A stretch of 63,708 nucleotides of DNA, counting the filler, from Sphacelaria rigidula (lineage: Eukaryota), in assembly GCA_964200075.2 (NCBI GenBank). It is 6 parts of 6 records of this genome, joined end to end, with 100 filler letters (N's around TTAATTAATTAA, not from the genome) between each part and the next. Parts side by side here need not be neighbours in the genome. Positions count along the whole stretch, not along the records: positions 31,908 to 42,441 come from CAXNAA020006324.1; 5 more parts are not named here. One strand, given 5' to 3'. Below are positions 2,708 through 54,815 of the stretch, piece after piece. Below the pieces are notes generated by a model that saw only the letters and a list, made by a program, of their open reading frames with translations, searched no databases and had not been told where the DNA came from. The position numbers were made by a program, and so were the translations under genes. Position 1 is the first letter of the stretch; every line of letters begins with the position of its first letter.

Positions 2708-3823
2708 TCAAGAGAGGCAGTTGTATTTCAATGTATTATAGAGATCGTTGCTGTACAAAACGTCACATGTGTTATGATATGGTGGTGCCGGATAAGGATC
2801 ACCAACTAGAGTAACACGGATGATAATGTTGTACAATTGTTGGGCAGCGACAATTTCTACATGAGTAGCATATGTGTAAGGATGCGACATGAGCTGAAGG
2901 TAATGCTGAACGCTATTGTATGTTTGGGCTTGAGAACCAGCAGTCCGTATTTGTTCGTAATGGGTTCCAGCAGACATTGAAGCATGCAGAGTCATTCCCA
3001 CAGACTTCGGAAATTGATCATGGAGGTGAGCGGACATGTGTTGGATAAGCTGCAATCTCACTAATGTGTGCGCGTTAGGGTCGTTGAAAACATGACGGGC
3101 ATTACATCGTAGCAAGCAAGCTCCGTCCCCAATTTCATTGACTAATTCCCAAGATTCTGGCGTATATTGCTGATCACCGTCAATATTAACGTCGTCATCG
3201 TTGCGGCCACGGCTGCTGTTACTGTCGTCGCTGTTGTTGATTTTGTCACCAGTGTATTTTTCACAACCACTATTATTGTCGCTTGAAGCAGTAATGTTGG
3301 ACATGTGACTGTGACGAGACACCTCAATATGAAAGACGGGAGGAGGTTGCCCTGTGGCAGCGACGATGAATTGCGAATAGACAACGATGTGGACGTGTGG
3401 GACACCACCCAAAAGGCGATCTTTGTTGATGAGGCAAACAATTTTGTCCCTGCATGTAGTTCTACTTATAGCAACATATAGCTGTCCATGACAAAACACA
3501 TGCCCCCGCAGGTCGAGGCCGACTCTTTTCAAGGGATGACCTTGAGATTTGTTTATGGTCATGGCATAACAAAGCCTAAGTGGAAATTGATAACGCTGAA
3601 AGGTAATGCCACGGGCACCTACCTGAGCTTCGAAGCAAAACCGCAGAATCTTTACTATCGGAGAATCATCGGACAATACTTCTACATCGGTGACTCTCTT
3701 AGAAATCCCGCGTATTACCCCTCTCTTGCCATTAACTATGCCGCTGTCAAAATTTATGTTTCTTATGAAGAAAACTAAAGATAGGGAAAATGTGAATTTG
3801 ACTTGAGCCCGTGGACGAGGCAT
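2708..3823 (-). pseudogene. Truncated Helitron RepHel ORF: PIF1-family SF1B helicase C-terminus, low-complexity linker and OTU-like cysteine protease domain
   Basis: Helicase motifs IRNINFDSGIVNG, QFPLRLCYAMTINKSQG and VFCHGQLYVAISR. OTU Cys motif IGDGACLLR and YATHVEIVAAQQLYN. The Rep domain and helicase motifs I-IV are absent. The His position reads DLY (CTC at 2741-2743). Confidence 0.85.
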
Positions 3824-3866
3824 TACCGGCGAGCGAACCGTCTGCGTTACTCGACTATCTCGTTAC

Positions 3867-10536: not shown

Positions 10537-10636
10537 NNNNNNNNNNNNNNNNNNNNNNNNNNNNNNNNNNNNNNNNNNNNTTAATTAATTAANNNNNNNN
10601 NNNNNNNNNNNNNNNNNNNNNNNNNNNNNNNNNNNN
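10537..10636. other. Artificial contig linker (44N-TTAATTAATTAA-44N)
   Basis: Six-frame-stop 12-mer within Ns; the same linker occurs at all five junctions. Confidence 0.97.
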
Positions 10637-21102: not shown

Positions 21103-21172
21103 CGGTCGCCCCGGTGGCTCAGTTGGTAACCTCGTAACCTTCTGATGGTTGTGTTGGGGGGTTCGATTCCCG
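21103..21172 (+). mobile_element. tRNA-derived SINE head, family 1 (cut by the contig end)
   Basis: A box TGGCTCAGTTGG and B box GGTTCGATTCC. Confidence 0.75.
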
Positions 21173-21272
21173 NNNNNNNNNNNNNNNNNNNNNNNNNNNN
21201 NNNNNNNNNNNNNNNNTTAATTAATTAANNNNNNNNNNNNNNNNNNNNNNNNNNNNNNNNNNNNNNNNNNNN
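21173..21272. other. Artificial contig linker
   Basis: N-run with TTAATTAATTAA. Confidence 0.97.
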
Positions 21273-21806: not shown

Positions 21807-22571
21807 TTATGCGTTCCATGATGTGCCCATACGTCCTGCAGGATTAAACGCAACCTAGAATGACTCTATGTTGCTTTTTTCCACTTTACTTGTTCTGTTT
21901 AGTACTGTTCCGTAGGTTCAAAACCGTGCTGGATTACAGTTGACAACGCACCCATGGGCCATGGAGATGGTGGATGTGTTCTGTTGGCAGGCGCAAATGG
22001 CTTCAAATATGTGAGAAAAAAAAATGTCAAGCATTTTTGACAGCAAGATTATTGAGTGTAGACGCATTCCAGTACTGGGGGTTACGGGAAGGCAAGCGCT
22101 TGAAAAATAAAAGCAGATCATACCTTGTAAAGAACCTTGGTCAATCCAGTTACGACCAGCTTGCACATGTTGAGCCCTCCCTTGAAATACCGGCTGAGGC
22201 TATACTGCAAGAGTTTGGCAAATCGCGCAAATCGCTCCTCACTCCATCTGGCAGCTCTATTCCGAAACTCCAACTTTGAAGCAATCACATCCAGGTAGTT
22301 GTCGGGGTACCTTTGTGAACACATGCGCACAAAGTGAAGCATGGATGTGTCACATATTTTTTGCCCGTGCTGAGGTTTCTTCTCATGCATCAACACACAT
22401 GTCACTGAGAAAAAAACGGACTCTGAGGGGGGGGGGGGGGGGGGGGGGTGGGAAAAAAATGGTTTTCTGGGGAAAAAAGCCACAAAAACCCCCCCCTCTC
22501 GGGGTTCTCGAAACACATCANNNNNNNNNNACATATCTCTCTAAAGACCGAAAAAACAAAAGAACGAGGGA

Positions 22572-31807: not shown

Positions 31808-31907
31808 NNNNNNNNNNNNNNNNNNNNNNNNNNNNNNNNNNNNNNNNNNNNTTAATTAATTAANNNNNNNNNNNNNNNNNNNNNNNNNNNNNNNNNNNNN
31901 NNNNNNN
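31808..31907. other. Artificial contig linker
   Basis: N-run with TTAATTAATTAA. Confidence 0.97.
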
Positions 31908-32089
31908 CCCCCCCCCCCCCCCCTCCGCCGTCGCCCAGAATGAGGTTTTCGGGAATCGGGGGCGATCTAAAACGTATTCCAGTCTGTAAGGCCACTTGCC
32001 TACGCCGACCAAACGTACAATGGCGTTCAACGTTTCCTTCAGCTCATGTTGCATCCATACGCATATGCCACACATGTCGAAATTATCAA

Positions 32090-33000
32090 GGTTGTGTTCT
32101 GTAGTTTACGGTTTTCTGTATACCCGGGGTATTGTCCCGTATATTTACCGTACCCGACACTTTCATACCGGTACCCGACAGTCCTGTAAAGTCTGTCAGA
32201 CTATCATACCCTTACCCGATAGTTCTGTGAGTTCTGTAAGCCTCCCGTACCGTTACCGGGGGCACGGGTATGCTCTTGATGAGAAACCCGGTTGCGGGTA
32301 AGGTTTTCTGTGCAGCCTTGATATCGTGCCCGACAGTTTCTGTGAGTTTTGTACGCCTCCCATACCCTTGTCCGACAGTTCTGTAAGTTCTGTACATAAT
32401 GTATGCCCGTACCCGGAGCGTGGCTACGCCCTGTGACGTGTTTAAATCGTGGGGGTTCAATCCCCGTCACTTTAAATCCGAGGAGGGCGACTCCCCCTGC
32501 CAGCGCTCTATCGACTGCCATCAGGACTTCTAGTGTTGTCCCTTCTCACCGTACCTTAGAGTTACTCGTCCCTCCCACTCGTTCCCAGAGTGTGTGCATT
32601 GGGGTCCCTAGCAGTCAACTCCACACATAGCCACCAGGCCATACCCCATCCTTTTTCTTTTCGGCCAATTTTTACAGAGGGTTTCTCTCCTCATTTTTCT
32701 TCACAGAAAGTGCGTCCGACGGGAATCGAACCAGCGACTAACTTTTGTGACGGTTTTACGAGACAACCAACTAGACTAATGACCAGTCAGCGCTGAGTGG
32801 TCAGTAGTCTAGTTGGTTGTCTCTTAAAACCGTCACAGCCCTTAAAGAAATACCCGATTGCCGGTACGGTTTTCTGTAAGCCTCCCGTACCGTACCCAAT
32901 AAGTTCTGTAATTTCTGTAAGACTTTCATACCGGTACCCGATATTTCTGTAAGCTCTGTAAGGAATCCCATACCCTACAGAACATATCCATACTCTCCAG
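32090..33000. repeat. Dispersed repeat with GTTCTGT/TACCCG subrepeats (host of the 406-bp insertion)
   Basis: Same family as 54470-54815 in the opposite orientation. That copy shows the uninterrupted ...GTACCCTTGAAGAAATACCCG site. Confidence 0.65.
32432..32837 (-). mobile_element. 406-bp solo-LTR-like element with a tRNA-type Pol III promoter and terminal palindrome
   Basis: Ends TGTGACG...CGTCACA. TSD GCCC (32428-32431 and 32838-32841). On the minus strand, A box TAGTCTAGTTGG (32767-32778) and B box GGTTCGATTCC (32722-32732). Palindrome of 92 bp at 32746-32837. Confidence 0.75.
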
Positions 33001-33003
33001 AAC

Positions 33004-33226
33004 ACAAGTTTGGAAATTATTGCCCCTCAACAATTGTACAACCTTCACATCCATGTTCCTCAAGTTGGAGAACCTTGTCCGGAGCCACCACCCGATAGCA
33101 CATGCGATGTTTTGTACAGCCACGATCACTACTGTACATTGAGATACAACAGCCTCTCTTGACCATATATTTTCGGCTTGCGTCACCCACGGGAGGTCCG
33201 TACCAACCTCCCGAAGGGGAACCATG
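33004..33226 (+). mobile_element. 5'-truncated 3' fragment of the same Helitron-like family (OTU C-terminus and hairpin end)
   Basis: Translates TSLEIIAPQQLYNLHIHVPQVGEPCPEPPPDSTCDVLYSHDHYCTLRYNSLS*, homologous to the end of the 2708 ORF. Followed by CCGTACCAACCTCCCGAAGGGGA and a TA-rich tract. Confidence 0.85.
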
Positions 33227-34105
33227 TGTATATATGTATATACATACCGTCCAGGATATTTTCCACCTCAGCTGACCGCCCACGTTGGCCAGAATTGTGC
33301 TGAGGCTTGTCGGGCTTGTCAGGAGGCTAGCTAAAAGGTTGTCAACGGCCTACCTCATCGGGTAAAGTGGTTGGGCATGTATCATTGCCGGCCATGCACC
33401 ATTGGCACAAAACACGGGAGGCGTGGCAGTGATCGGCAATCGTGATCGCTACTGCAGAACTCGCGCCGACCGGGAACAGTTGAGCCGATCGGTGAAGGAA
33501 CGCCGCTACTCTTTGAGCCCGCGAAGCCGTACCAGCCCGTATTTTGCACACCTCTGTTTATTCCGACTAGTGCCCGAGGTGTGCAATCACTGCACAACGC
33601 GGACAGCAGCAGATCGTTAGGAAACACATGGCATCCGCTTGTACTTATTCTTATGGATATAACACCCTCCGTAATTACTTTCGATGTATCCTCATGCAAG
33701 CAAGAGGGTGTTGTCTGAAGACAACCTGTCGCAGTGGTGCACAACGTCGAATGCAAGCAAGCGCATACCCTGGCTGGTGCAGTATTCTGGTCATCCTCCC
33801 CTTTATCCGTTTGCGTTATTCTGCACGCGCCGTGACATGCCGTCGTAATTATGCCAACGCCGTCGCAAAATTTCCCCCGCCGTCGCGTCCAAACCAAGAG
33901 GGGCGAGGTGCACAGTATACTGTACAGGAACAACAGAAGGTACATGTACACACCTCTCCATGGTATCGACGATGGGTACTAGAGTTGAACCAATGCGACT
34001 AGAGTAATAACCGACCGCGCCCTTATTCTACAGCGTAAGAAGTAGGACGATCAACAGCTCAAGCGCTCTGCGAGGGAAAGAGAGGACCACCCCCCCTCCT
34101 GCCCC

Positions 34106-34175
34106 TTGCTCCGTCTCGAAAGGGATGCGAGGTCAATGGTCAACCGACTAAGGCAAGCAACAAATGAGTACGCCT
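34106..34175 (+). mobile_element. 3' tip of the C-tract LINE family with a 15-bp TSD
   Basis: Flanked by CCCCCCTCCTGCCCC (34091-34105) and CCCCCCTCCTGTCCC (34176-34190). Confidence 0.85.
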
Positions 34176-34521
34176 CCCCCCTCCTGTCCCTCTTCCATCT
34201 GTGTGCGCGGGGGTCAGCGGTCACTCCTCTCGAGACTTTCGGCCGGGGTGATCAAGCATTCTCCTGGCGGATATACCAACTACATACAGTTGTTTCGTTG
34301 CTCTGCATTCTGATGGGATCTAGCCCAACGATTAGCAGAGGGATAGCTTGCATTTGCCGTGAAAAAGGACTTGGTGCGACTGAGGAACAATCGTTGTGCC
34401 ACCAGAAGGATTAGGGAGCATTTGCAGGAAACTCCAGGCCCTGCGACGTAGGCCGAAACCGCTTTGAAAGTGGTTCTGATCGTTTGTAGCCGTATTTTTA
34501 CCATAGTGGTCATGAAACACT

Positions 34522-37500
34522 TTACAGTCGAACGGTTTGCTCATGCATATAGGCAAGACAGCACCAGCAGCAGTAAACTCCAACCATCAACGCGGAAATG
34601 GCGGCGCATATCGCATACATCGCGGCTGGCCACCCCTCGTTGTTCGGTCCCAAAAGGCAGGCGATGAAGGCGGGTATCACCATCTCGCCCATGGCGCCGC
34701 CGATCACCATCCGCGAAGAGTCACTGTCCGATAAAGCATATCCTGAGTACCCACCGCGGCCATTTCATCACAGGGGGGTGAATGGACAGCGGTTAGATTG
34801 GTCAGGAGGGGGAGAGGATACGAGTAATAGTGATGAGGCCTCGACTCCATGGGACCTTTGAAAAGCCGTGATATATGAGACACATTCCCCGTGTGGCCCT
34901 GTGGCAGGTTAGGGGCGCCTCCCGATCGGTGACACCCTTTAGGTTGGGGACACACGGTTTGGGCGAGTTTACCTTTCAGAGGAGCTATTTCAAGTGCGGA
35001 ATCGCAGAGCTCTCCACGAGGGGAAGAAGCGTCTATTATGCTCTTGTTTTTCTCTCATCGAGCATGAACTTTTGGCCGGGAACACGTTTGCCTATTTATA
35101 TTTTTTTTCAAAATATTTTCTCATCCTGTCGTACGGAGTAAACGCCTGACCGTAATATTGTACAGAGACCTTGGCGTATCCTCAGGTAAGGTTGAAAATA
35201 ATTGAGACCCTCCAGTTCTGGGGTGGGCGGTAGGGCAGACAGGTGGTTAGAAGAACATACAAAGTGGGCTAACTACAAACAATCGATTGCACAATATTCA
35301 ACTTCTGATTGATGGTATCGAAATATTGAACAGCCTGGACAAAATGTGGTCAATAATTGCAATAGACCTATACATCAAGCAGTACATTTTTTTTTATTTC
35401 AACTATCGACCACATTTTGCTCCGGGTGTGGAATATTGTCGCCTGTGATAGGTTTCACTCCTCTGACTCTCAATACCGTAGGTGGCCCCGTAAAGAACCC
35501 TTCATATGTACCCTGCTGACGATTCAAGGTACAATGCACCTGTTTGTGGCTGCGCTTTCTCTCTTCAAACTCATTCAAGTGTGAGTGCGCCACTCCGGCG
35601 GAAGGCATTTCTGTACACCCTTAAAGAGGACAATAGTGGACCTCGGAAACTGCTCAGATGGGGGCATCGGTGACAAAAATACGTTCAATTTTTCAAATGA
35701 TACCAACCAGGACGTCGCCTCCAACAATCTTTCGACGGGAGTCAGGTCGGTGCCAGGAGAACGTTCCGGAAGATGGTGTGGTGAGGCCACTTTGCATTGC
35801 ACACCGCTGTGTTGCACTGTCAAACTGTTCCGTCTATGCGTGTCACTAAAGTGTGCCGCAACCCGTCGCCAACATCCCATTATTGAATATACTTGATCTC
35901 AACGTAGACGATCACTTTCGCATGTTTTGAGGGCGGACAGTCTCATGTTCTGGCCAGCGTATGCAGCGTGCGCATTTGTTCAGCTGCGCACTTTGACTAG
36001 AGAACACTTCACACTTCACACCCGCGCCGTCGAAGGGATATATTTATACGCTGCTTGGATGGGGATTTAGGGGTCTGGTTCGCCGCGGGGTTCGACGCAA
36101 ACGAGTACGCGTCAACTAGGAATTTGACGACGGGGTTAGGGATAATGTACTTCGTACCGTGCGCGGGTGGGGTTGGTATGTGAGCGTGTGCTGATGCGAA
36201 GCAGTCCACGTTATTCTCTCGAGCCTTGAGCACCCTCGACTGGAAATTTTCGAGCGACGAACTTCCCGCGGAAAAGGAGGTACCATTGTTGCTCTGATTC
36301 TCTATCGAATAATAAAATAGCTTAACTTGGAAGCGTGTATTGTGATTAATGCCATAGCACGAAGGACATCCTTTATCTTCCAACTCCGCACTTTTCACTA
36401 CTCCTCGGCTACCTCGTCTACCCCGGGCAAAGCCCCCTTTAGCGTAGCCTCCATGTATGGGATATGGGTCTTGGCGTTGAGCCAGGATATCCTGGAATGT
36501 TCTTGCTTTCGATTTACCTTTACGCAAGCTGGCAGTAACTCGTGTTCTTTGCACAGCACTTGCAGCGATGAAGGTGGGTCGGTCAAAACTGAACCGCAAT
36601 GGATTGCGGCACAGCAGTGATATTTCTAGACTCCTTCTATTAAGGCTCCGATTCCGGGGGGGGGGGGTTGGAGTAGTGTATCGCGTATTTGATACCCGTT
36701 ATCGGAACACGAAACGAAATGCAGCGTCAGCCTAACTTTTTCAGGGCCAACATATGGACAATTTTGGTCCAATCTCACACCACTTTGCCGCAGTGACACT
36801 TCACGCTGATGGGGGGCGTTGCCACCGGTGCCCCCGGCGAGCGTGTGGCAGTAGGGGCTGGAGCCTGAACTACCACGCGTTGCTGTGGAGTATCGACAGA
36901 GAGCCTACGCCAGGTTCAAGCGTGCGTCTTGAAGACCTGCCGAATTTTGCGGTGGTACCCTGGCGGGTGGGGAGTGTTTGCCCCTCCGAAACAAAGTACC
37001 AAACAAAGCAGTCGACTGTCGAGACGATGGAATTTTTCAAAAACCTTTTTTTTCGTGCGTAATCTCAGCTCATCCATTCACAGTGAGGACTAGAGGGTCT
37101 CATCCTTAAGGTCACGCGTTTCCTATATGAACCCCAACGGTTACGACGTCTTGAATAAAATGAAGAATGTCATTACACGTTCGTGCGCAGTTCTTGTGTC
37201 GACCCTTTGGGAACCCACCGACGACTTTTGTTTTCGTGAATCGGCATCATTTTGACTCGAAATGACTCGAAATGACGCCGATTCACAAGAACAGACAATC
37301 GTCAATGGGTTTCGAAAGGGTTAACGGTCTCTTGACCAATCGACGACGGTTTTCGACCGTTCTGTTGTTGTATCATTCCGAGAAAAAACACACAGTGGTT
37401 GTTATAGGTTATTGCACCACAACGTCAGCGCGTGCGTCTTATTGTGTTGGGCACTATCCTCGGAGAAGTGCCTTGATCCTCACCTGATTTTGTACTTCAC

Positions 37501-40500
37501 AGAGGAACTTGCTCAGGTCCCCAAACAGTACCTCGGCGTGTCTAAGATGACTGCAGGCGTGTAGGAGATGCCAAAGATGATAGAACCAGTATAATCGTGG
37601 GCAGCTACGGTGCTCACGACCGCCGGTACGGCTACACATATCGACTGTGGAAGGAAACCTTCAAGAATCGGCACTTCCATTCAAGACGCCGATGTTGTGA
37701 TCTCTTGCTCACAGCATCACCCCGTTCTTCACCAAAAGCAGCTCGTATCCGCACAAGAGTTGGTGCGCTGTAACCGCACGGCCCTCAGTTATCACGAAAA
37801 CTGTCGTCTAAGTCGATCTGGTAAGTGGGTGCGGAGATATCCCCACTTGTCAAGTGACGCGTATTGTGCAAGTGCGGTGCTGGCCCTAGCGATAGTTGTG
37901 GGCCACCTCAGCTGTGGAAAATGTAGCGGGGCATCGCATACCCCCTCTGTCTATACGCACTACGCAAATGCGCATACATTATCGGCGTGAGACATGCACG
38001 CTAGATGGCTTTTTGCCACCAAGCCACTTGCAGCCATACCATATTACTAGTCATCGATAGACCCACACCAACATTTAGTGATGAATGTAATGCTACACTG
38101 AACCCAAGCAATCAGATTATACCTGATGAATGCTTGCTGTGCTGGAGTACTTTGTGGCGGTAGGCACCATTGTATTAGATTTAGACAGACTTCACTATAT
38201 TTAAGTGGCGAACGATGACCATGTTTATTCCAGGAAATTCGTTGGTCCAAACCAATACAAAGTAAAAGTAGCAAGTGACACATTGCACTCGATCGAAGCA
38301 ATTGGCTGTTTAGCACTACTGTCAACTGGTCCGCCGTCATCGTCGCCGTTGTGTAGGTTTTAGCATGTCCATGCTGTATTCAAGTACTAAACAGCGGCCA
38401 CATACGATTCCAGTGATAAAGCGACCAAACTAACGGAAAATAAGGACCCAAGCGTTGTGGTGAGTTAACCCTTTTGGAACCCTCCTCTCCTTTCCCCGGG
38501 CCAAACGCCTCATTATGAAAAGCCTTGACAAAGAGGAAAAGGTGGAAGCAGAAAAGGCCGGCGACAACCATTTTATGATGGGAAACCGAAGAAGAATCCA
38601 GTGGTACGCGCGCCGGGTGCAGAAAAAATGTCCTCTCTGGAGAGGTCAGGTGAGTTTTGTCAAATCATACTCGTACCACGCAACGGATGACGTGTGTTCA
38701 ATTGTATCCGTCGACAATAATCAACAAAAACAATATGAAATATTCCATTAAAGAAAACAGCAATGGGTTCCAGGGTCTGATACGGCACATCGGTGAATAG
38801 AGAACCTTCTTTTATTCCACTTGCCACTCGCACGGGTCTGAAAATACGCATTTGGTGAGTGTTGTTGCGTCTGAGCTGTAAAGCATCAACCACATCTTGC
38901 TTAAAAAACCGTCAATTGCAAATGATCAATTTTCCATTGTGAGTTCCAAAGGGGTTAAGACCACGTGGGTTGCGGCTCAGTACTGGGATAACATTCTTCG
39001 CGGCGGCAGGCACTACTCTCCAGGATTGAGATGATTCACACTTTCTAGTGGTGATTACGAAGTGAACATCACCTATAGTGGCCAGCAAACACGAGCTGGT
39101 GGGTTCGATCGTGCAAGTTTGGACGGTCCACGCTATATTCAAGTGTGTCAAGAATCCAGCAGCCATTCAAGTCTAGGACGTGGTACCCGAAAACACCCGA
39201 AAAGAAAAATAGAAATTGAAACCACTAGGGTTTGCGGGTAGCCGCGTGAGTGCAAGACCCTGCTAGTGGTTTTCATAAACGGGGCTATGGCCGAATATCC
39301 GCAAGGCAGTCGACATTCTGAAGTCCCCCTCTGCACCAGTAGTACCCAGATACGGGAACCTCCCGAGAATACATCAGAAGTTTGGCTCACCCATTTAAAG
39401 GCCAGGGAGCAGGGCTTTTCATCGCCTATCCGCGTACCCACTATTTTTTTCTTCCAAGCGTGAGACAATAATCGATATATGGGTCTTGAGCCTCTTAAAT
39501 GCGGGTACCAGAGTGAATCGCGAAGTACGCCGGGTGGTTTGTTACCGTGCACCCCTCCTGTGTGTAACAGGACAGGATATACTGATTATTACTGTTCCTG
39601 TAATTCCTGCATTCTCTGAACTCACAACTTCTTTTCCGTGTGCCGCTTAGCCTTCCAGTACATGACAGCAGGCACAGCTAAAACTCTGTGACGTTGACGT
39701 GATAACTCACCCCGACTCGGCAGTAACGACATGGCCAGAGGAAATATGGAAGCCATGGAAACCCCGAATGCTCCACCTCCGGTAGCAGCCCACGCCAGAC
39801 TTTCCTGTGCGGAAAACGGAATGAACACCGCGGAAATGCGAATTGTCATCTCTCGGAGGGGAATGGGATTGGGGAGAACTCAGCATGGGGTGTACCACTT
39901 CGACACTATGAGGAGGATATCACACGACTGCGGAGAAAGGCAGCCCAATGTTGAAACTTCGGAGTGATTTTGCGCGAAATTTCGGGGTAAACTCAGAGTC
40001 CACAACTTTCGATTTCTGGGTGACCGACAACAGCATGTCAATAGCGTTTATTCGGGGAAAAGGGGTACAAGTTACACTGGATAGAGTGTTCGGCAAAACG
40101 AAGTGACCGCCGTGTGTGTTGTCGACAACATCAGACCTCAAACACGGAGAGGACACGGTGAAAACCGCATCACGGCAACAGCCGCCTTGTTAGATCGGGC
40201 TATGGGGCGCTTCCGAATTTCTTCTGACCTCAACCTACTCTAGAGTACTTGCACTTGAAAATCGGCCTCGGGAACGTTTATCGCTAACCGCTGTCGGCTC
40301 CTTCCACACGTCACCTGTGCTTATGGATCTTCCGAGGCGAGATGCAAGAGATACACCACTCACCCTGCCGACCGCCAACAACGCCGCTGACGAAAGCAAG
40401 CATCCCACCAGATTTGCCTTCAGCAGGGTATCCGTCGAGAACCTCACAGCAAGAGGGATAGCGAGGAGTCTCCCAACCGTGATGCCCCCCCAAAAAAGAC

Positions 40501-41702
40501 TGCCGAGTTCATGGGAGAGGAGGGCACAGTGGGCGATGGGAAGCACTGTGCTATCCTAGATTGAGGTAAAAGATGACGCGTGAATGGTCGCCGACTACCT
40601 GCACTGCCAATGTTAAATGCGACACGGCGCAGGCACATCGCGATGTAACTTGTAAAATGGCACGCAAGAGAGTTACAGGTGAATGGAAACTGGATGGCCG
40701 AAGACATTTCCGGCACGTGCGTACACGAAAGCGCGCATTACCGTCGCTTGCCGAAGCAACCAGACGTTCGTTTCCTTCCTTTCGTGGCGAGCTTTTCGGC
40801 ATAATCACATTCCAGACGAGGACTTTCAAAACTCCCGTGCCATGAACGTGTACAGAGAGAATGTTACGATGCGTTCAACAAACTAGAGTAAGTCCTGACT
40901 GGCCCAACGGCTCAGGGGCCGATGTGCTGCGCACACGGATTAGAAATCCGCGTGAATTTCTTCCTTTGATTCAAATACCACTCCTCACGGAAACAAATTG
41001 CTGTATTGTACACGCAGAACGACCATCGAAAAGAGACACCGCACACCGTAACAACCGTCTGCGCATGCTCTGAATAAACGAAAAACAAATGGTATATCCG
41101 CGTCCGCGTCAGCGGTATACGCCCCATCTGCCTAGCACCGTGTTTCATCCCCTCGCGAACGCCGTACCTTGCCATCAAAGCAGCTCCAGCTTCGGTAGCC
41201 AAGTCATCCCTCAGCACCACAACGGCGACCCACGCGCCAAAGCCCACTTCCGCCCCAACATAAAGGAAAAAAAAGAGCACCAACATATTGACTAGAGCCG
41301 GTGGCGAAGGCTGCGCTGATACAACGGGGTCTGCATGGCTACCGTTCTTTTCCGCCATAGGCAGCGCCAGCCCTGCTTCCTCCGTGGAAGTTTCATGGCC
41401 GTCGCACGGTTCAGTTTCATGCGCATCGGTTCTTTCCACAAAGGGCACACGGGTCCTGTTCTCGTATGATGATGATGCTGATGTCGGCGTGGTAAAGGCA
41501 ACCAAGCGGGCGGTCTCTGCGGTCGTTGGTGATATGACGTCTTCTGCCACGTCTTCGGCTGCCTCGGCTTTCGCATCGTCGACAGTAACTACCGGCGCCG
41601 TCGTCCTGGTATTCTCCCCATCGGCTGCTTCGTCGGCCCCTGTTCTCCGTCGTATAGCTACTGCTTTTTCTGTTGCTTCTTGTTTTCGCGAACTCGTTTC
41701 AC
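34522..41702 (-). CDS. MFSD4: MFS transporter, MFSD4/NaGLT1 (FucP/FHS-like) family; C-terminal half, 5' end off-contig
   Basis: Exons 41702-41168, 40499-40364, 39804-39711 and 34742-34522 splice in phase with GT-AG. Motifs FFFLYVGAEVGFGAW, SLFWGGITVGRLLAIPL, FGVSMASIFP and VIGGAMGEMVIP (TM7-12). Confidence 0.88.
37203..37320. mobile_element. 118-bp fold-back mini-element (piggyBac-type end)
   Basis: Imperfect ~50-bp arms CCCTTTGGGAACCCA...GTGAATCGGCATCATTT and AAATGACGCCGATTCAC...TGGGTTTCGAAAGGG, then TTAA. The left flank reads TCGA. Confidence 0.7.
38469..38954. mobile_element. piggyBac-type MITE (486 bp)
   Basis: TTAA-CCCTTTTGGAAC at the left end and GTTCCAAAGGGG-TTAA at the right end. 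Confidence 0.7.
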
Positions 41703-42124
41703 CTGCCCGATGAAAAATAGGGAATATTTTCTACGGTTGCTCTGTGATTTCGAGGGTATATATATATATATATATATCCCTGTCCTAAATACCTTCACTC
41801 TCGTACTTGGGATACTGTCTCCTGCGCGTGGGCCCGCGCAGGCTCGTCTGGAACGGACGTTCCGCCTTGGAACAACACGTTCCGTCACGTCGAGCTATTG
41901 CCGGTTCAATCACCAAAGTATTGCTATACTCCAAGGAGAGGAGCAGCTCACCACAGTTTTATCTCCCTCCTCTTTAGTCCTTGTCCTGATCAACTTACAC
42001 ACACACAAAATGAATGAGCATCCTAGCCGGAGTGGCTCAAACTTGCGACCCACGAAGCTACCGTCTCCCGGGTCCGAGGGCGGTAGCTTCATTTGGCATC
42101 GATAGTAAGACACGAACCGATGAG

Positions 42125-42441
42125 TAATACTGTAGTAGGAGTAGGAACGGTGCTCCGTCTCGAAAGGAATACGTGGTCGATGGATAAACGACTAAGGCAA
42201 GCAACAAATAAGTACCGCCCCAGAGAAAGAGGTTGCCAGCTATAGTTGATAAGGCTGTATGGAAGAAAAGTACGAAATGGAAGGCTGGTATAAGGTAGGA
42301 TGGCGAAGTCGAGAAAGTGTGGAAGGAGATGGGAGGAAGTCAAGACGAAAAACTGTCCATAGGTGAAGACGCGGGGTACAAGGCAAAAGTAAGAGATATG
42401 ATCAAAATGAGGGGAAAAGGAGCGCTCAGGCGCAAAGTAGA
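42125..42441 (+). mobile_element. LINE 3' tip (to 42220) followed directly by another copy of the same LINE (cut by the contig end)
   Basis: ...GCAAGCAACAAATAAGTACCGCCCC is followed by AGAGAAAGAGGTTGCCAGC..., homologous to ~30560-30770. Confidence 0.75.
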
Positions 42442-42541
42442 NNNNNNNNNNNNNNNNNNNNNNNNNNNNNNNNNNNNNNNNNNNNTTAATTAATTAANNN
42501 NNNNNNNNNNNNNNNNNNNNNNNNNNNNNNNNNNNNNNNNN
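42442..42541. other. Artificial contig linker
   Basis: N-run with TTAATTAATTAA. Confidence 0.97.
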
Positions 42542-44912: not shown

Positions 44913-47900
44913 CTACAAGATCGTGTGTTGGCCGGTGGACGCCACGGAGGCGAAGGACTTATCGTCTGCAGCGGATCCCGCCATTTCCACCTTCGCGCCA
45001 GACAGAACAGAGCCACATTTGGCACAAACGGAGAACGCCACGGCAAATAAAACGCAACGGTAAAACGAGTAGGTCAATCAGCACATGATAGTACAGTCAA
45101 GGAGCGAAGCATGGCTATACGCGATCTCGGTCTGGCTCTTGTCTCTGTGTACGCGTGCGTGCGTGTGTTGCCGTCGAAAAGCCGGCAACGAAAAGTGTAT
45201 TTGTTCGAGCACCCAACCCATCAGGAGAACCAGGTGAAGAGATAATATTCCAGGCTCAAATATCAGACAGCAGACATGACGGGCCTGCGCGAAATATCAT
45301 GTACAAGAGAATGCCTTACATTGGAAGGGGAGTTAAGATCGCGGTACGCCATGCCAACCGGCGTGTAGAGGAATGCCAAGAAGAGGACGTAGATGTTGAA
45401 CATACCGTAGAAGAACACCAACACCTTGGATCCATGCTGCAAAGGAGGTGAGCACAAATCAAATGTGAGGACAGGACGCACGGCGAGGAAGAACTTATCA
45501 GCGTCACGGCATGTACCAGGCCAGACGAGGCACATAGAGAGAGGAAACCTCGCCGGCTGCATCGGACAAATGATGGGTGACACGTTGCAACACGCCACGC
45601 GAAGTATTGAGGAGATTGCGGAGTTCAGTTGCCAGCGCGAGCGGGCACACGTAGTGGGGAAGCACAAAGTCCCTACTCGTTGTGAGAGAATCTTCAGAGC
45701 TTGCCCGATAGCAGTTCGAGATACTCAACCTGACCACAACTTTTTCCAAGATGTGTGTATCCGCTGTGCAATGAACCCTGAAGACGGGCAAGCCGGGGTA
45801 CACTCTCCAATCCTATGATCATAACAACTCCACTCAAAACAAACTTAGGATGGACCCTCACTCGGATACTGTTCACACTAGAGGAATATGCAGCTGCACG
45901 CACCTGGTCCGGGGCAAAAGCACCAGTGAAAATCGCTGACATTGCACCGAAAATGGTCACCAGCGTGATCACCGTAACGAAGATGTACTCGATGTTCATC
46001 TGCCGCACGCGTCGGATGGTCTGCTCCACTAGAATTCCCAGCCATACGAAATATACCATGTAGAGTATAAGCCCGCCAACCTGTACCGCGCATACAAAGA
46101 AAGTAGTCAGAAGCAGCGCGCCCGCCTACTGTAGGTATTACGGTAGTTCACAGCATCCCAACGAAAATATCGGCGACATGGGGTGCTCGGGTAGTCTAGT
46201 GGTTCGACTGCCACCGATAGGGTGCAGAGTTCGATCCTCGATGCATTGGGTTTTTTCTTTCAAGTATCTGATTTCCACCACCGAATTCGTGAGTACGTGA
46301 GTAAGTGAAAGGCGGCTGAGTTTGCTCGACGAGTGTCGAAGCGGTGCGGGAGTGCTGATCCAAACCGCGAAACCGAAATGTGAGGCGTGTACCGGCGCGA
46401 GATTGGGTGGTCTCTTGAGACCATTGGACCACGGACTCATCCCAAGGGGATAGGGGGGGTTCAAAGTGCGACTAATAAAAATAATCACGTGACAATCCAC
46501 GTCCACTGTCCACTGTGCTGTAGATGTCTTGTGATACCCCGACGGCGCACGCAAACCGTTGTAGCCCTTTACCACCAACCGAAAGACACATGGAGCTCCG
46601 AAATCCAACCGCGTTCGCATTTCGAAATTTACGGATGCTTGTGGAGGCGAAGGGGGGGGGGGGACTGCTGCAACGACTGCTGCAACGACTCCTAAATACG
46701 AGATTGCCGTATGTCAGGCATTACAGTATGATCGATAGCAAGGCTTCTTGCGATCTGCTGATGTGGATTTCTGTCGAGGTTTTCAAGGGACATGCCTCAC
46801 GGATAGCGAGGTGCGCTGCCTTTCGATAAGTCAGTTAGGTGATGCATGGTGACGACGCACCGCGGTGGTGAAGCGTTTGACGTTGCGCAAGCGTTCTCGA
46901 CATCCGCAGAGCGGAGTGTGCTCGAACAGGGATAGGGACCACAATACCTGCACGACTGTATTTTTCTCCTTCGCCATTTCACAGGTAGAGTCCATGAGTG
47001 CTGAGCATGCTCCAGGAAAAAGTTGCTGTCCTAGTGCAAAATACTCGTACCACCTCGTATATGGTACAAAACTGCCAGGTATGCTCGACCACGTCAAGTA
47101 CAAAACTGCCAGGAATGCTAGACCTGTGCACTTCAGGGGAGAAGGAGATGGATGCTGCGGTCGCAGCCTTGCAAACTACAATGGAGGCATGTATCGGTAA
47201 CCGTTGTCAGTTTTCATGTACAGTAGGCTCGTTTCTGATTTTCCGTGAAACTGTCTGCCGAGTAACTGATGGAAAATTGATCACAGATCTCAAGATAGAG
47301 GCTGCCACTCACGCAACATAACTCGTATACCACACGAAAACATAGATGACAAAGTTTAGTACAAAGTGTTTTGGCTCTTGCGCACACAAGTGTCGTTTCG
47401 CACAAACGCTACGGTAACTTCGCCAACGCCTCCCCCATCAGACGGTTGTTTGATTCCTGCTCTGTATCACTACTCCCGTACCTAATCCTTACTTTATACG
47501 CTCAACCACAATGATTCGGAGTACCTGGTGAACAGCTATCACCTCACCTTGATACTCGTGTATGACCTCAAGTCGTCCACGGTGCTGTATGAAGGGTCTC
47601 CTGCCTGCTTGACCCGTACGTAGCTGGAGTGGGTTAGGGTACGAACCACACACATGATAAAAAAGGCGGGTATGATGCACGTGATTACATGTGGAGAAGC
47701 TGCGCATTCTTGTTGCCGAAAGTAGTGGGATCCAACACCGCCTTGGGTCGAAGGCCTACGAGCGAGTGAATATGCTTGCAACACATGTCGCAGTATCCAA
47801 AATACAGTACAAGCGTGCTCTGAGTATACGAGATGCCACACACGTACAGCAACCTTTGAACCAAAAGGGTACCTGAAAAAACATGACCGGACGTACAGGC

Positions 47901-50900
47901 GGTTTGTGGATGTCGAACAATATAACACCGCTAAACTGCCATTCCAACGGCTTCGCCTTCTTGCGCACCTTACAGTTACAGAAGTCGAGAGTATGACAAA
48001 GGAGATGCGGTGGTGGTAGCTCACATGTAGACAAGGAGAGTGGTGATCCAAATTAACCCGACGAGAATCAGCTTCGGCAAGTATTCCCTAAGCGCCTTGG
48101 ACCGGTTTCGCTCCCACTCTTGCGCGGCATCGGTCCCCTGCGCCGAATACACGACGTTGATGAGAAGCCACGGAAATGTATCGCAATGCCGGGGTTGGAC
48201 CATCGTATATATATGATATGTGTCACCACCTCCCAGATACCTGGGTTGTACACGAAAAGCGGCCTCGACTAACAAGCAGGTCATGGCCCAAAGTACTGGG
48301 CGCCTCAACTATTTTATGTTCAAATATTTTTTCTCCCGACTACTCTTGGATGGACCTCCGAAGTGCTAGCGTCGGTAGATTTTGGTAAAATGAACAGATC
48401 GTCCCTCCCCCCCAGTGCCCAAGTTAGTGTCAGTGAGCTTTATCGGGCGATACGCGTAGATACCCCGTCTATCAGGAGGGTGTTTTTGATCATGAAATAC
48501 AGCTTTTCGGCTCTAGTGCAATGAATAGGTATAATTTCAGAAAACACGCATTTGTAAATTTCTTCACATATACGATCGGGACACGCTCGATCAACCGAGA
48601 ATATCAAGGAGTCATCAGCATCTGGGCCGAAACTTGAGTCAGGAACCCCGATGACCTGTCCGCCTCTAAGTCACTCAAGGTTGAGTACAGATGACTTTCT
48701 TTTACTGGAATGTGGGGCGGATACATGTACCTTGAGATCCTCAATGTGATGGGTGACGGCAAGCGAAACAGCCTAAGTGAACCGTCAATTACGAAAAAGT
48801 TACGAAATGAACAGTTCAGGCGCCCTCTACGGTATATAACTTCATCGTCATCACGCCTCGGCGATAAGATATGCATGCTCCCAATGAACGTGAGTCACAG
48901 GTGAGCTGCATGGTCGACCAAAGGACATGACGCCGAACTGCCTGTGGTTTGTAAGATGAAAAACCATACGGGTCCCCGTAGAGTGCCCGTTTCGGTCGGC
49001 ATGAATTCGTGTCGGGCTTCTGTTACACAGCGATTCAACCACTTGCTCCAGCATGGAATGAGCACAGCGTTCATCGCGGGCATGGGAAAACTGTGCTGTA
49101 TAGATGTGCTGGGATCTAACCTGCATGTTGCCGCTTGCTAGATCCGAAAACAGTTCCAGCCAAAAGAACATAATGGCAGCCAGAAACGTGACCAGCATCA
49201 CCATATAGAAGCTGCGTCACAGGGGTTCACACCAAACAGGAGGAAACGAGACAGAAGCAGAAGCAGAGACGAGAAATGGAGCTGTGATTACGCTGGATCC
49301 AACGCACTGTGTGCCACACTCACCCGCAATTTCACTCTTAGAGAGTGACATGAGGAGAGCAAATACACGTTCTTGCCACTGGATGTGTGCTTGCCTTCAA
49401 TTCCTTAGATCTGCCTAGGCAAACACCATGGTGAGCTCGGCACATGAAGACTTCCAAGTCCTTGCTCATGCGCGTGCACTGCCGATTTAGCATAAATAAT
49501 AGCCTGAACGACAGTATCAGACTGGAGCAAATATCAACGATCCGATCCCCGAAAAAAACGGTGGAGACGCAGACACCCTGCAGTTCAACTGCATAATCTA
49601 CGCGATGTGCTGCAACTTAGGGAAAGCTCCGCGGTATTTCGTGACGATCCTCACCTGAAAAACGTGCGGGGAAATGAAGAAAATATCTGGCCAGCAAAGA
49701 AGATGTTGTTGAAGAACAGGAGAGACCCGAGGAGTACCCCAATTCGAACCTGCGTTTTGAATAACGATCGCAAGGGGACGATTTGCATCCCGAACTGGAG
49801 TAGGCAATTGAGTCATAACTTCTCCATGATTGATCGTGAGTGATTGGTTGGTTGGTTAATTGATTGTCGCACCTTTGACCAACCACTAGGGATCTAGCCT
49901 TGGTCCCACGATAGACGTACCCAAGGCAAAACAAGACTGAAAGACTTGCTGAAGAAAAAGAAAGAAGAGAAAAAGTCGAACAGGACGACAAAATGTGAGC
50001 GGCAACAGTAAAACAAACTCCCCGGGTCATATCTCTCACCCACGCTCTCAGGAGTCCACGCCCTTTGATAATGCAAGGCTCAGGTTGTAGATCCTCTACT
50101 CAAAGGCTTAAAAAAACTCAAGAACTGTTCGCCTTCCAAAAAATGCGCGCTAGATTACCCAAGACCAACACCTTAGGGAGAGGCACAGAGCCATGGGTGT
50201 TACATACAGCGGTATTGGGGCCCCGCGCTAGTTGTCGCGCATGCTCTATTAATACTTTCGGAAACGGATACAGCTGCCATATAACGTCCGGATCAGGGAG
50301 CGACAATCTCTGGGTTGAGATCTCGCAAGACGAGATGGCGTATGCTTGACGATGAGACGGCTGCCCGAGAGCTCACGCGTTCTAAGCGAGGATCTTGCAG
50401 TGTTACTGAGAGTCTCGCAGTCAGTGCTACCGAGGGTCTTCAAGTGCCAATACGAGTCCCCCCGCATGCGATACGCAGGCTGAAGCTCCTTCTGATTGAA
50501 AAAACAAATCACTGAGCTACCGGTTTGACAGTAACGTGATCTGCGTGGAAATTTCGACACAGCGATCCGCTTGAGAAGAGGAATCCGCTTCGGACTGCTG
50601 CCGAGATAGCCCCCCCCCCAAAACCGGCCAAAAACGTGCACGGAGGCGATGATCATAACTGCCGTTAAAGCTGGTTTCGTGNNNNNNNNNNTGTGGGCGA
50701 AGTTGCTGCAAGCGAGCCCAATAGTGGGATCGCAGCCGGTTCGTTGGATGGTGCCGGCGCACTTTTTGTGGGGGGGCTATCTCGGCATTAGTCTTCGGCA
50801 ACTGCCATAGTACGCACCACAAACGGTCAACGTCGCGGTGAAGCGGCTACTGGTTGGTCGTTCTGTCGCATCGATATTCGCTCCCCTACCGTTCTAAGCT

Positions 50901-51133
50901 TGTGGTGGTGCGTGCCCGCGTACCTGTTGTCGGGACCAGAAGTTCTTGTGCAGCTGCATCATTTCGTAAAAGAAACCGACCTTGGGCAAGAACATAAACA
51001 TCAGCGCCAAAAGAACCCACGTGTAGTGCATCTTCATCTGAAACTTGGTGAACGACTTGCTCATGTACACCATCTCGAACCCCAGGGTGAAGTAGTCGTC
51101 AGCATCGAACACAGCCGGCTCTTCCATGGTCAC
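44913..51133 (-). CDS. TMEM181: TMEM181/GPR178-like (Wntless-related) multipass membrane protein; 5' end not found
   Basis: Exons 51133-50924, 49749-49655, 49211-49121, 48137-48025, 47623-47548, 46080-45904, 45436-45320 and 44990-44913 all splice in phase. Family motifs FTKFQ, W..QQ..I.VLL..LLFFNNIFF, IMFFWL, YLPKLILVGLIW, GDPSY and FFYGMFNIYVLFLAFLYTP. Confidence 0.88.
46180..46483 (+). mobile_element. tRNA-derived SINE, family 2, near full length, intronic
   Basis: A box TAGTCTAGTGG, B box GTTCGATCC, shared body, GTTCAAAGTGCGAC and an A-rich tail. Confidence 0.8.
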
Positions 51134-51289
51134 CTGCCGGTTGTTCGAAGCACAGCGCAGCAATCCGCGGCACGACAAAGGCATATATTTTCTGAGTGAT
51201 TTACGCTTGGAAACTCGCCCTGCAGCAAGACGCACAGGGCGATGGGGAACTTTCGCCGACCGTGCCCTGTCCCGGTAGCAATTGTGCAC

Positions 51290-52350
51290 TGCAGTCGGGT
51301 ATTGTATACCGCACAACTCAATCCGGTCGTTTCAACAACACAGCAGTCCATCGCTACAATGATTGCCGTAGTAGCTGTGACCTGCCAGGAGCTCGGATTG
51401 ACGGTATCGTAGAAGAAGACGTCGTCCATGCGTCTGCGGTCAGCATCCAGCTCCACAGTGACCGCGCTCCACATCAAGGCGGGCGGTCAACGGTATAAGC
51501 ATGTGGCCAAGCTTGTCTACCTCGGTGCTATCAGGGCGAATGCGAAAATATCCACTGACATCAAGCGCCGCATCAGCTTCACAAGGGCACGTCTCCGAAA
51601 GTATGATTCCCAACTCTACGATAGATCCAACGCCCAGCTGACATTGAAAGTCCGCCTGATTAAAATCGGAGGTGCTGGAAGCTCTCTTGTACGGACGTGC
51701 GACATTGGCGTTTCGTTCTGAGGACTTGCAACAGCCTGCGCATTGCCCATCACTAGCTTTTGCGACGAGTGGTTGGACTCCGCAGGAAATATCGAACGGG
51801 CTACAAGACTCTTTCGTACGGTGCTGTGCTCGAGATGACCAACTGCGAACGTGTCGAGCAGATAATTCGCAAGCGTCAACTCTAGTTCGCACGAGCCCTG
51901 TTCCGACCGGACGAAATATGCCTTCCCAAACGCAGTCATACACGGACGGTTAGCCGCACAAGGGCCCAAGGAGGCCGGCCGCCCCCCCAAACACTGAGCG
52001 GACAACCTCCACGAGAAACTACGTGCAGTAGGGGCTCTTCAACGCGAAGAAGCGCAACAAAATTGTTCGTTTGCGGTGTAGACGTTGACGACGCACACGA
52101 TAGGGTCACGCCGGAGAAGAACATGGGCAAATGGCATCTTGGAGTCCAGAAAGGGGCGGAAGCGCTCGAGAACAAATGGCGACGCGACGCGAAGACAAAC
52201 GAGAATCGGACCACCGTCACAAACGAGAGGCTGCTGCGTCGAGGGTCGCCAATCAGAGAACTGCCCCCACTAGCGCAACGGCAACAGCTCCCCAGGAACA
52301 CAAGATGGACATGAGGGAGAGAATGGCCAGCTTTGTACTCGACGAGGGAT
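51290..52350 (+). mobile_element. RTE-clade LINE relic (RT C-terminal part and thumb), with stops and frameshifts
   Basis: TCQELGLTVS*KKT...GQRYKHVAKLVYLG...DIKRRI...LTLKVRLIK/EVLEALLYG, typical of RTE ORF2 after the YADD motif, which is degenerate here. Confidence 0.85.
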
Positions 52351-53075: not shown

Positions 53076-53175
53076 NNNNNNNNNNNNNNNNNNNNNNNNN
53101 NNNNNNNNNNNNNNNNNNNTTAATTAATTAANNNNNNNNNNNNNNNNNNNNNNNNNNNNNNNNNNNNNNNNNNNN
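53076..53175. other. Artificial contig linker
   Basis: N-run with TTAATTAATTAA. Confidence 0.97.
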
Positions 53176-54469: not shown

Positions 54470-54815
54470 AAGTTGTGTTCGGTAGGGTACACGGGTACAT
54501 TTGGTAGGGTATGGGATTTATTCCGGAACTTACAGAAAACTGCAGCACCTGTATGGAAGTCTTACAAGAGCCACATAATCTGTTGGGTACGCAAGGTATG
54601 GATGGAGGTTGTACAGAAATCCACCCTTGCCCGCAACCGGGTATTTCTTCAAGGGTACATACCCGTACCCCGGGCAGGTGTATAATATTTCGTACAGATC
54701 CTACAGAACTAGCTGTCGGGTATCGATATGAGGATTCAAGAACTCATATGACTGTCGGGTACGGGTAATATCCGAGAAAATACTACAGGTATTCAAAATA
54801 TCATACCCTACAGAA
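54470..54815. repeat. Dispersed GTTCTGT/TACCCG repeat (same family as 32090-33000)
   Basis: Shared blocks such as CTTGCCCGCAACCGGGTATTTCTTCAAGGG. Confidence 0.65.

Follow-up and report, generated by a model that had tools for sequence, protein, structure and literature searches.

The DNA analysed here, referred to throughout as the window, is a stretch of 63,708 nucleotides (filler included) from Sphacelaria rigidula (GenBank assembly GCA_964200075.2), and its piece from record CAXNAA020006324.1 (positions 31,908 to 42,441) carries a 406-bp repetitive element at 32432-32837 that lies within a 41-bp satellite. The window is built from six pieces of about 10.5 kb each, joined by spacers of the form N44-TTAATTAATTAA-N44 at 10537-10636, 21173-21272, 31808-31907, 42442-42541 and 53076-53175, and neighbourhoods or distances that span these points are not genomic. 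Runs of ten N at 22521, 50682 and 63393 are separate from the spacers and resemble assembly gaps. A preliminary description of the element had presented it as a hybrid of a short interspersed nuclear element (SINE) and a long terminal repeat (LTR), with integrase-type ends, an RNA polymerase III (Pol III) promoter and a terminal palindrome.

By direct reading, the element begins with TGTGACG at 32432 and ends with CGTCACA at 32831-32837. An inverted-repeat search shows that these termini form a terminal inverted repeat (TIR) that is perfect over 7 of 7 positions and matches at 13 of 15 when extended, its left copy, TGTGACGTGTTTAA(A), occupying 32432-32446 on the plus strand. Directly abutting both ends is GCCC (32428-32431 and 32838-32841), a 4-bp target site duplication (TSD) seen for one copy only, which was formed in the insertion target ATGCCCTTGA. 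The interrupted satellite extends over 32164-32974, with arrays called by Tandem Repeats Finder at 32164-32257 and 32871-32974, and it also occurs on a second piece of the window at 54504-54723; it is itself very abundant, with a summed depth of 2e4-6e5 in public runs.

Logan contigs of four public runs were placed on the window at 80% likeness. Three of these are DNA runs, and the fourth (X6), available as contigs only, is no more than guessed to be RNA, so that its depths are uninformative on expression; none of the listed runs containing the sequence is recorded as RNA, and their labels include metagenomes of algae, protists and marine sediment. Each DNA run has 8-10 contigs that link 32427 straight to 32838 and thereby skip 410 bases, that is, the 406 of the element plus 4, with five ambiguous letters at the joint and GCCCT present on both sides. 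A further 10-11 contigs link 32420 to 32838, and the loose ends at 32420 read ...GCCCTTGAAGAAATACCCG. Since the joints skip 410 bases, element-free copies of the satellite carry one GCCC. An element-free paralogous stretch inside the window (54583-54723, minus strand) shows the same satellite, uninterrupted near 54655-54670 and with a single (A)CCC. This is the empty site that had been pointed out near 54650; as the window consists of six joined pieces, it sits on another piece than the element, and the contigs provide the stronger evidence at paralogous sites. We conclude that 32432-32837 is a genuine insertion with a 4-bp duplication, and the ends, the TSD and the interrupted host repeat all stand as first described. 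The same is true of the missing tail: on direct reading, the 3' end of the minus strand, ...GATTTAAACACGTCACA, is followed at once by the TSD, and the element carries no poly(A), simple-repeat or long interspersed nuclear element (LINE)-derived tail.

The minus strand of the element, taken here as its sense strand, contains a tRNA-derived module at 32711-32785. The A box of this module (TAGTCTAGTTGG, 32767-32778, element positions 60-71) and its perfect B box (GGTTCGATTCC, 32722-32732, element positions 106-116) are separated by 34 nt, and their start-to-start distance of 46 nt is the spacing found in a tRNA. Both boxes had been recognised in the preliminary description, and their pairing is not a matter of chance: the composite of A and B boxes has two sites in the window, one in the element and one at 21115, and of 300 simulated windows all but 2 lacked such a site, which identifies the module as truly tRNA-derived. 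The pattern GGTTCRANNCC occurs five times in the window compared with 1.08 expected, and two of the five occurrences fall inside the element. One further T-arm- or B-box-like motif, the second copy in the element (GGTTCAATCCCCGTC, plus strand), lies at 32454-32468 and repeats the B-box region (32718-32732) in inverted form, with 13 of 15 positions matching. No cloverleaf is formed by the module; ARAGORN calls no tRNA gene in the window or in the element, Rfam gives no tRNA-family match at E-values up to 10, and the tRNA-like stretch folds no better than its shuffles (z +0.66).

Downstream of the centre of the terminal palindrome, which lies 13 nt before the A box as had been stated, the minus strand contains no run of four T up to the end of the element, and the plus strand contains six runs of four or more, four of them in a T-rich tract at 32650-32705 that is A-rich on the minus strand. 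The counts of the preliminary description are therefore correct, but its use of them as evidence is not, since base composition alone predicts only 0.59 such runs on the minus stretch and their absence is uninformative. The putative Pol III RNA extending from the palindrome centre to the element end would not be unusually folded either (z -0.91). When the two ends are joined in silico (32805-32837 to 32432-32464), a plus-strand A box comes to precede a B box on that strand by 55 nt; in a circular or tandem arrangement of abutting ends, the junction would be the only place with a complete Pol III promoter. A permuted tRNA across the abutted ends was considered and rejected, since ARAGORN finds nothing there at default settings and needs the 80% threshold to report one, at which an implausible tRNA appears on the opposite strand as well. 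The other composite site belongs to a second tRNA-derived module at 21104-21172 (plus strand; A box TGGCTCAGTTGG at 21115, B box GGTTCGATTCC at 21160), which has an anticodon-arm-like stem, is ended by the end of its piece and shows no hairpin or TGTGACG upstream. Its presence suggests that the genome may hold more families resembling SINEs or the Helenus elements discussed below.

The plus-strand right end of the element is a spacerless palindrome of 46+46 nt, with an inner arm at 32746-32791 and an outer arm at 32792-32837 that are complementary at 43 of 46 positions, in agreement with the three mismatches originally counted. Folded as DNA it reaches -44.8 kcal/mol (z -14.5), and none of 200 shuffles did as well. 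The outer arm carries the right terminus ...AAAACCGTCACA, and the inner arm begins with a third copy of TGTGACGG; the element accordingly has three copies of the terminal motif TGTGACGKKTTTAA, one at either end and one where the inner arm begins. The minus strand of the element starts with TGTGACGGTT. The only notable Rfam match, that of the hairpin to mir-5615, a family listed in mouse studies, has 41 bits where the gathering score is 82 and was set aside as a generic hairpin match. The idea that the 92-bp hairpin is a separate insertion was likewise dropped, as its flanks, CTTT and GCCC, form no TSD and its depth is at most twice that of the neighbouring bins.

The element belongs to a highly repetitive family of which the palindrome is a regular part. 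Contig depth summed over the element amounts to 1e5-1e6 in the three DNA runs, compared with about 10-90 for individual long contigs; summed depth is not copy number, and we read it as very many copies, roughly of the order of 1e4. A blastn search of the element against the window returns the element itself and its own palindrome only, and one copy in 63 kb is consistent with a very abundant family in a large genome. From 32828 onward, 49-68 contigs per DNA run read CCGTCACA before passing into unlike sequence (agreement 0.52-0.54), and these many different flanks make the right end a family boundary. No comparable cluster of loose ends could be made out at the left end, nor could TSDs of other copies. 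The two palindrome arms share words, so that contigs fit either of them; the inner arms, however, precede the conserved AAAGTTAG, and the contigs with divergent flanks therefore cannot stem from inner arms. Behind the right end of other copies the plurality letters begin GA, not CC. At no fewer than 17 of the 406 positions (at least that many) nearly all depth carries a letter different from that of the present copy, and the majority letters 32759 C>A, 32779 A>C and 32797 G>C concern exactly the three mismatched palindrome pairs, each of them restoring pairing. In the family majority the 46+46 palindrome is therefore perfect, which makes the hairpin a family feature and not the one-off 5' inversion that the preliminary description had named as the finding that would speak against it. 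Subfamily variants include a T run shortened by one base at 32754, a place whose mirror in the other arm is 32826-32829. The most variable part of the family, and the one of lowest depth (bin 32655-32691), is the T-rich tract. Exact-pattern scans for further copies returned nothing in metagenome contigs, in two scans of genome contigs and in viral contigs, and a second scan of metagenome contigs gave two matches that share only 19-21 bases and are due to chance.

Similarity between the two ends reaches beyond the terminal motif. Aligned in inverted orientation, they are collinear over the blocks 1-12/1-12, 13-19/82-88, 20-36/103-119 and 37-42/126-131, and the end-to-end alignment scores 39.2 compared with 20.6 +/- 4.0 in shuffles, a value that none of 1000 shuffles reaches. 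Judged by this alignment, the left end resembles a right end from which the hairpin is missing. Part of the similarity comes from a generic T-arm motif that can likewise be matched to the unrelated module at 21157-21172. The left end (the 3' end of the sense strand) had been proposed to fold as GTGACG-GGG..CCCC..CGTCAC; this proposal does not survive comparison with shuffled sequences, which are equally stable (z -0.9 and -1.3), and the stem adds little.

The element is non-coding. None of the five open reading frames (ORFs) that overlap it has a Pfam family, and neither does the 113-aa ORF at 32207-32545; a protein search with a 76-aa ORF spanning the left end gave no candidate. Among 197 ORFs of at least 90 aa in the window and five shorter ORFs overlapping the element, there is no match to reverse transcriptase (RT), integrase or transposase.

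Taken together, all features of the ends point to an enzyme of the integrase-like DDE family, and the question becomes whether the unit is the LTR of a terminal-repeat retrotransposon in miniature (TRIM) or a transposon with TIRs; TGTNR termini are common to Gypsy LTRs, Ginger1 and Ginger2 (PMC2836005). Tentatively, and with a probability of about 0.42, we read the 406-bp unit as a solo LTR of the Helenus type (TRIMp3) or as a derivative of such a family that consists of the LTR only. Helenus elements are TRIMs with a tRNA-derived sequence, boxes A and B included, in their LTRs, and they make up TRIMp3 together with Cassandra and Ajax (Kojima 2024, PMC10886601). They are known from fungi, animals and one lycophyte; the animal members have 4-bp TSDs and are probably mobilised by Gypsy elements, the fungal and plant members have 5-bp TSDs, solo LTRs flanked by TSDs occur frequently, and the LTRs of one fish family number 5575 (PMC10886601). 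The preliminary description had proposed either a solo LTR of a tRNA-promoter TRIM or a single-unit parasite and knew of neither having been described; the first of these options had in fact been published in 2024 as Helenus/TRIMp3 (PMC10886601).

The assignment to a Helenus-type LTR draws on the precise insertion with its 4-bp TSD, the TGTNR termini, the non-chance A and B module, the non-coding nature of the unit and the great abundance of the family, as well as on the target GCCC, which is GC-rich and non-palindromic and matches neither the Ginger1 nor the Ginger2 preference. In the consensus file of the Helenus supplement TGTGACG occurs 11 times, in 9 of the 11 cases as the first LTR bases of bivalve and wasp families, and several of the LTRs starting in this way begin with TGTGACGG or TGTGACGGTT (PMC10886601). 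In the bivalve LTRs inspected by eye, the tRNA-like part lies in sense orientation a few tens of bases past the 5' terminus; the A box of the element begins at base 60.

On such an account, a retroviral-type DDE integrase would have pasted the unit into the satellite, leaving TG..CA ends and the 4-bp duplication, and the solo state would have come about by recombination between two LTRs. Read on the minus strand, the LTR would consist of the TGTGACGG terminus, a 46-nt upstream part, the promoter module (A box at 60-71, B box at 106-116) and about 280 nt leading to ...CGTCACA, with the outer palindrome arm serving as the U3-like part. One event may have created this arm by copying the first 46 transcribed bases of the tRNA-like head in inverted orientation; the anticodon-loop-like CCGTCACA of the head resembles an LTR end, so that the end of the arm would mimic an integrase end. 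After this single origin the palindrome would be inherited via the 3' LTR in the normal LTR cycle, which makes a fold-back in each generation unnecessary. In two oyster LTRs from the supplement of PMC10886601, Helenus-2C_CGi and Helenus-1_SaGl, the first approximately 30 bases resemble, by eye only, the inverted 3' half of the tRNA-like part of the same LTR, a possible precedent for an LTR 5' end derived from an inverted tRNA-like piece.

Several observations weigh against a Helenus-type LTR. At this locus no second LTR, primer binding site (PBS) or polypurine tract (PPT) is visible, and satellite lies on both flanks; as the window ORFs contain no match to RT or integrase, no partner is visible either. 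With 406 bp the unit exceeds the longest reported Helenus LTR of 323 bp (PMC10886601). Behind its tRNA-like part there is only TTT, where the Helenus LTRs compared by eye have a T run, and CGTCACA has no occurrence in the consensus sequences of the Helenus supplement. The collinear inverted similarity of the ends extends far past the termini, which is commoner in TIR elements, and Pol III transcription of the element is a prediction from its boxes. Two variants were rejected. A complete two-LTR TRIM within the 406 bp would have as its sole direct terminal repeat a stretch of 13 nt, with no PBS seen by eye beside any CA end, and an internal LTR end at CTTCACA (32699-32705) is a 5-mer match expected by chance.

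If the unit is a Helenus-type LTR, it would extend a class described only in 2024 to a further lineage, at far larger copy number and with a terminal palindrome whose centre sits at the predicted Pol III start. The genome would then be strewn with very many tRNA-like promoters, which matters for tRNA gene prediction and repeat annotation. The ability of the anticodon-loop-like part of a tRNA-like head to mimic an integrase end would, in addition, offer a concrete route for a merger of SINE-like and LTR-like elements.

The best surviving alternative, not considered in the preliminary description and in our view unlikely, is a non-autonomous cut-and-paste element, that is, a miniature inverted-repeat transposable element (MITE) moved by a DDE transposase of the Ginger1, Ginger2/TDD or IS481EU-like kind. 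The terminal TGTGACGKKTTTAA motifs, present three times, would then be transposase sites, the tRNA-like head and the palindrome would be SINE-derived cargo, and the left end would be a version of the right end that lost the hairpin. The inverted collinear blocks of the two ends and their alignment score speak for a MITE. Ginger elements are defined by TGTNR ends with 4-bp TSDs (PMC2836005), and both ends of the element read TGTGA; IS481EU elements have TGT..ACA ends, TIRs mostly below 50 bp and TSDs of 4 bp, with 15 or 25 bp also on record (PMC10045372). The published Ginger2 MITEs, of 531 and 651 bp and with 4-bp TSDs, are of a size that the element fits, and of the first bases of their 16-bp TIR TGTTACGGTAAAAGTA 8 of 9 are shared with TGTGACGGT (PMC3845634). 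GingerRoot has TSDs of 6 bp (PMC6839031).

The target argues against such a transposase. Ginger1 duplicates CCGG (75%) or CCGT/ACGG (24%) and Ginger2 prefers AT-rich targets (RTATAY/TATA) (PMC2836005, PMC3845634), and GCCC, as well as the GA plurality in the right flank of other copies in the case of Ginger1, agrees with neither the CCGG/CCGT nor the TATA type. Ginger1 TIRs measure 40-270 bp (PMC2836005), and the perfect TIR of the element measures just 7 bp (13 of 15 when extended), with degenerate collinear blocks to about 50 nt whose similarity is in good part the generic T-arm motif found again at 21157-21172. Ginger families are small (PMC2836005), Ginger2 MITEs number about 40 to more than 120 copies (PMC3845634) and the largest IS481EU family 376 (PMC10045372), compared with a summed depth of 1e5-1e6 here; IS481EU is reported from parabasalids only (PMC10045372), and no transposase was found among the window ORFs.

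The single-unit option of the preliminary description fares worse, and we regard it as very improbable. Here, Pol III would start at the palindrome centre and produce an RNA without the outer arm, the 3' end of the complementary DNA would snap back and rebuild the 46-nt arm in each cycle, and a Gypsy-type integrase would trim at the CA recreated by the arm and insert the DNA. This scheme is in keeping with a palindrome centre that precedes the A box by 13 nt, close to the predicted Pol III start (about 32785-32792, minus strand); by a rough estimate, a centre placed at random in some 400 nt would lie no more than 6 nt from there in about 3% of cases. The perfect family-majority palindrome and the TSD that directly flanks the unit fit the scheme as well. 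A perfect majority palindrome is equally expected, however, from the amplification of one master copy, no RT priming site is visible and the 3' flank differs in each copy; the T-run argument is within chance, and the structure of the putative RNA is unremarkable (z -0.9). What holds of the original pair of options is thus a mobile, non-coding unit with integrase-type TGTNR..CA ends, a 4-bp TSD and an A/B module, and the fold-back part is left with the position of the centre as its one positive point. Literature searches turned up no such mechanism, and no fold-back regeneration of ends of this kind is known to us. It would, if true, be a new way of completing retroelement ends.

Least probable of all is an ordinary LINE-dependent tRNA-SINE whose master copy acquired a 5' inverted duplication, with the TG..CA ends and the TSD incidental, for although the tRNA-derived head with its A and B boxes, the A-rich minus-strand tract behind it, the second tRNA-like module in the window and a TSD seen in a single copy would suit a SINE, the inverted ends (7/7, 13/15 extended) fall exactly at the boundaries of the empty site, no poly(A), simple-repeat or LINE-like tail is present, and an internal Pol III promoter would not pass on the outer arm, which is family-wide. 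Ohshima and Okada reportedly proposed an origin of tRNA-SINEs from strong-stop DNA; this idea was absent from the passages of PMC3747384 that a term search returned and from a further literature listing, and it is not used here as evidence.

Elsewhere in the window, a 384-aa open frame at 2711-3862 (minus strand) has sub-threshold matches to Pif1- and Herpes-type helicases (22.4 bits against a cut-off of 27) and is probably the remnant of a Helitron-type helicase. Three open frames at 45266-51331 (minus strand) match consecutive portions of the Wntless-like transmembrane domain (PF06664) weakly and below threshold, and are probably exons of one gene.

Among known systems, Ginger1 and Ginger2 share with the element the TGTNR ends and the 4-bp TSDs (PMC2836005, PMC3845634), and differ from it in a target preference that GCCC does not match, in low copy number and in the 40-270 bp TIRs of the autonomous members; the available portions of these papers report no tRNA-like module for Ginger. 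Resemblance to tRNA-derived SINEs (SINE2) consists in the A/B-box head, the A-rich tract, the short length and the many copies, whereas SINEs lack inverted TG..CA ends and rely on LINE tails or poly(A), neither of which the element has. Cassandra likewise places an internal Pol III-type promoter in an integrase-ended repeat unit (PMC10886601); its promoter is, however, of the 5S and not of the tRNA type, and it is confined to plants and always described with two LTRs.

In comparison with Helenus, the element stands apart by the features already weighed, namely the lack of a visible second LTR, PBS and PPT at this locus, the lack of a run of four T behind the tRNA-like part and a length of 406 bp, where Helenus LTRs reach 323 bp at most. 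It also has a second, inverted T-arm-like motif at its other end and a 92-bp spacerless terminal palindrome centred at the tRNA-like start, of which there is no counterpart in the Helenus LTRs compared. With Helenus it shares TGT..ACA termini, its first 7-10 bases being the same as those of nine animal Helenus LTR consensus sequences, and, in the one copy for which it is seen, a 4-bp TSD as in the animal members. As in most Helenus elements, no functional tRNA is predicted in it. The likeness further includes a sense-oriented tRNA-like A/B module near the 5' end and a non-coding unit, which in Helenus can occur as solo copies with TSDs and in thousands of copies.

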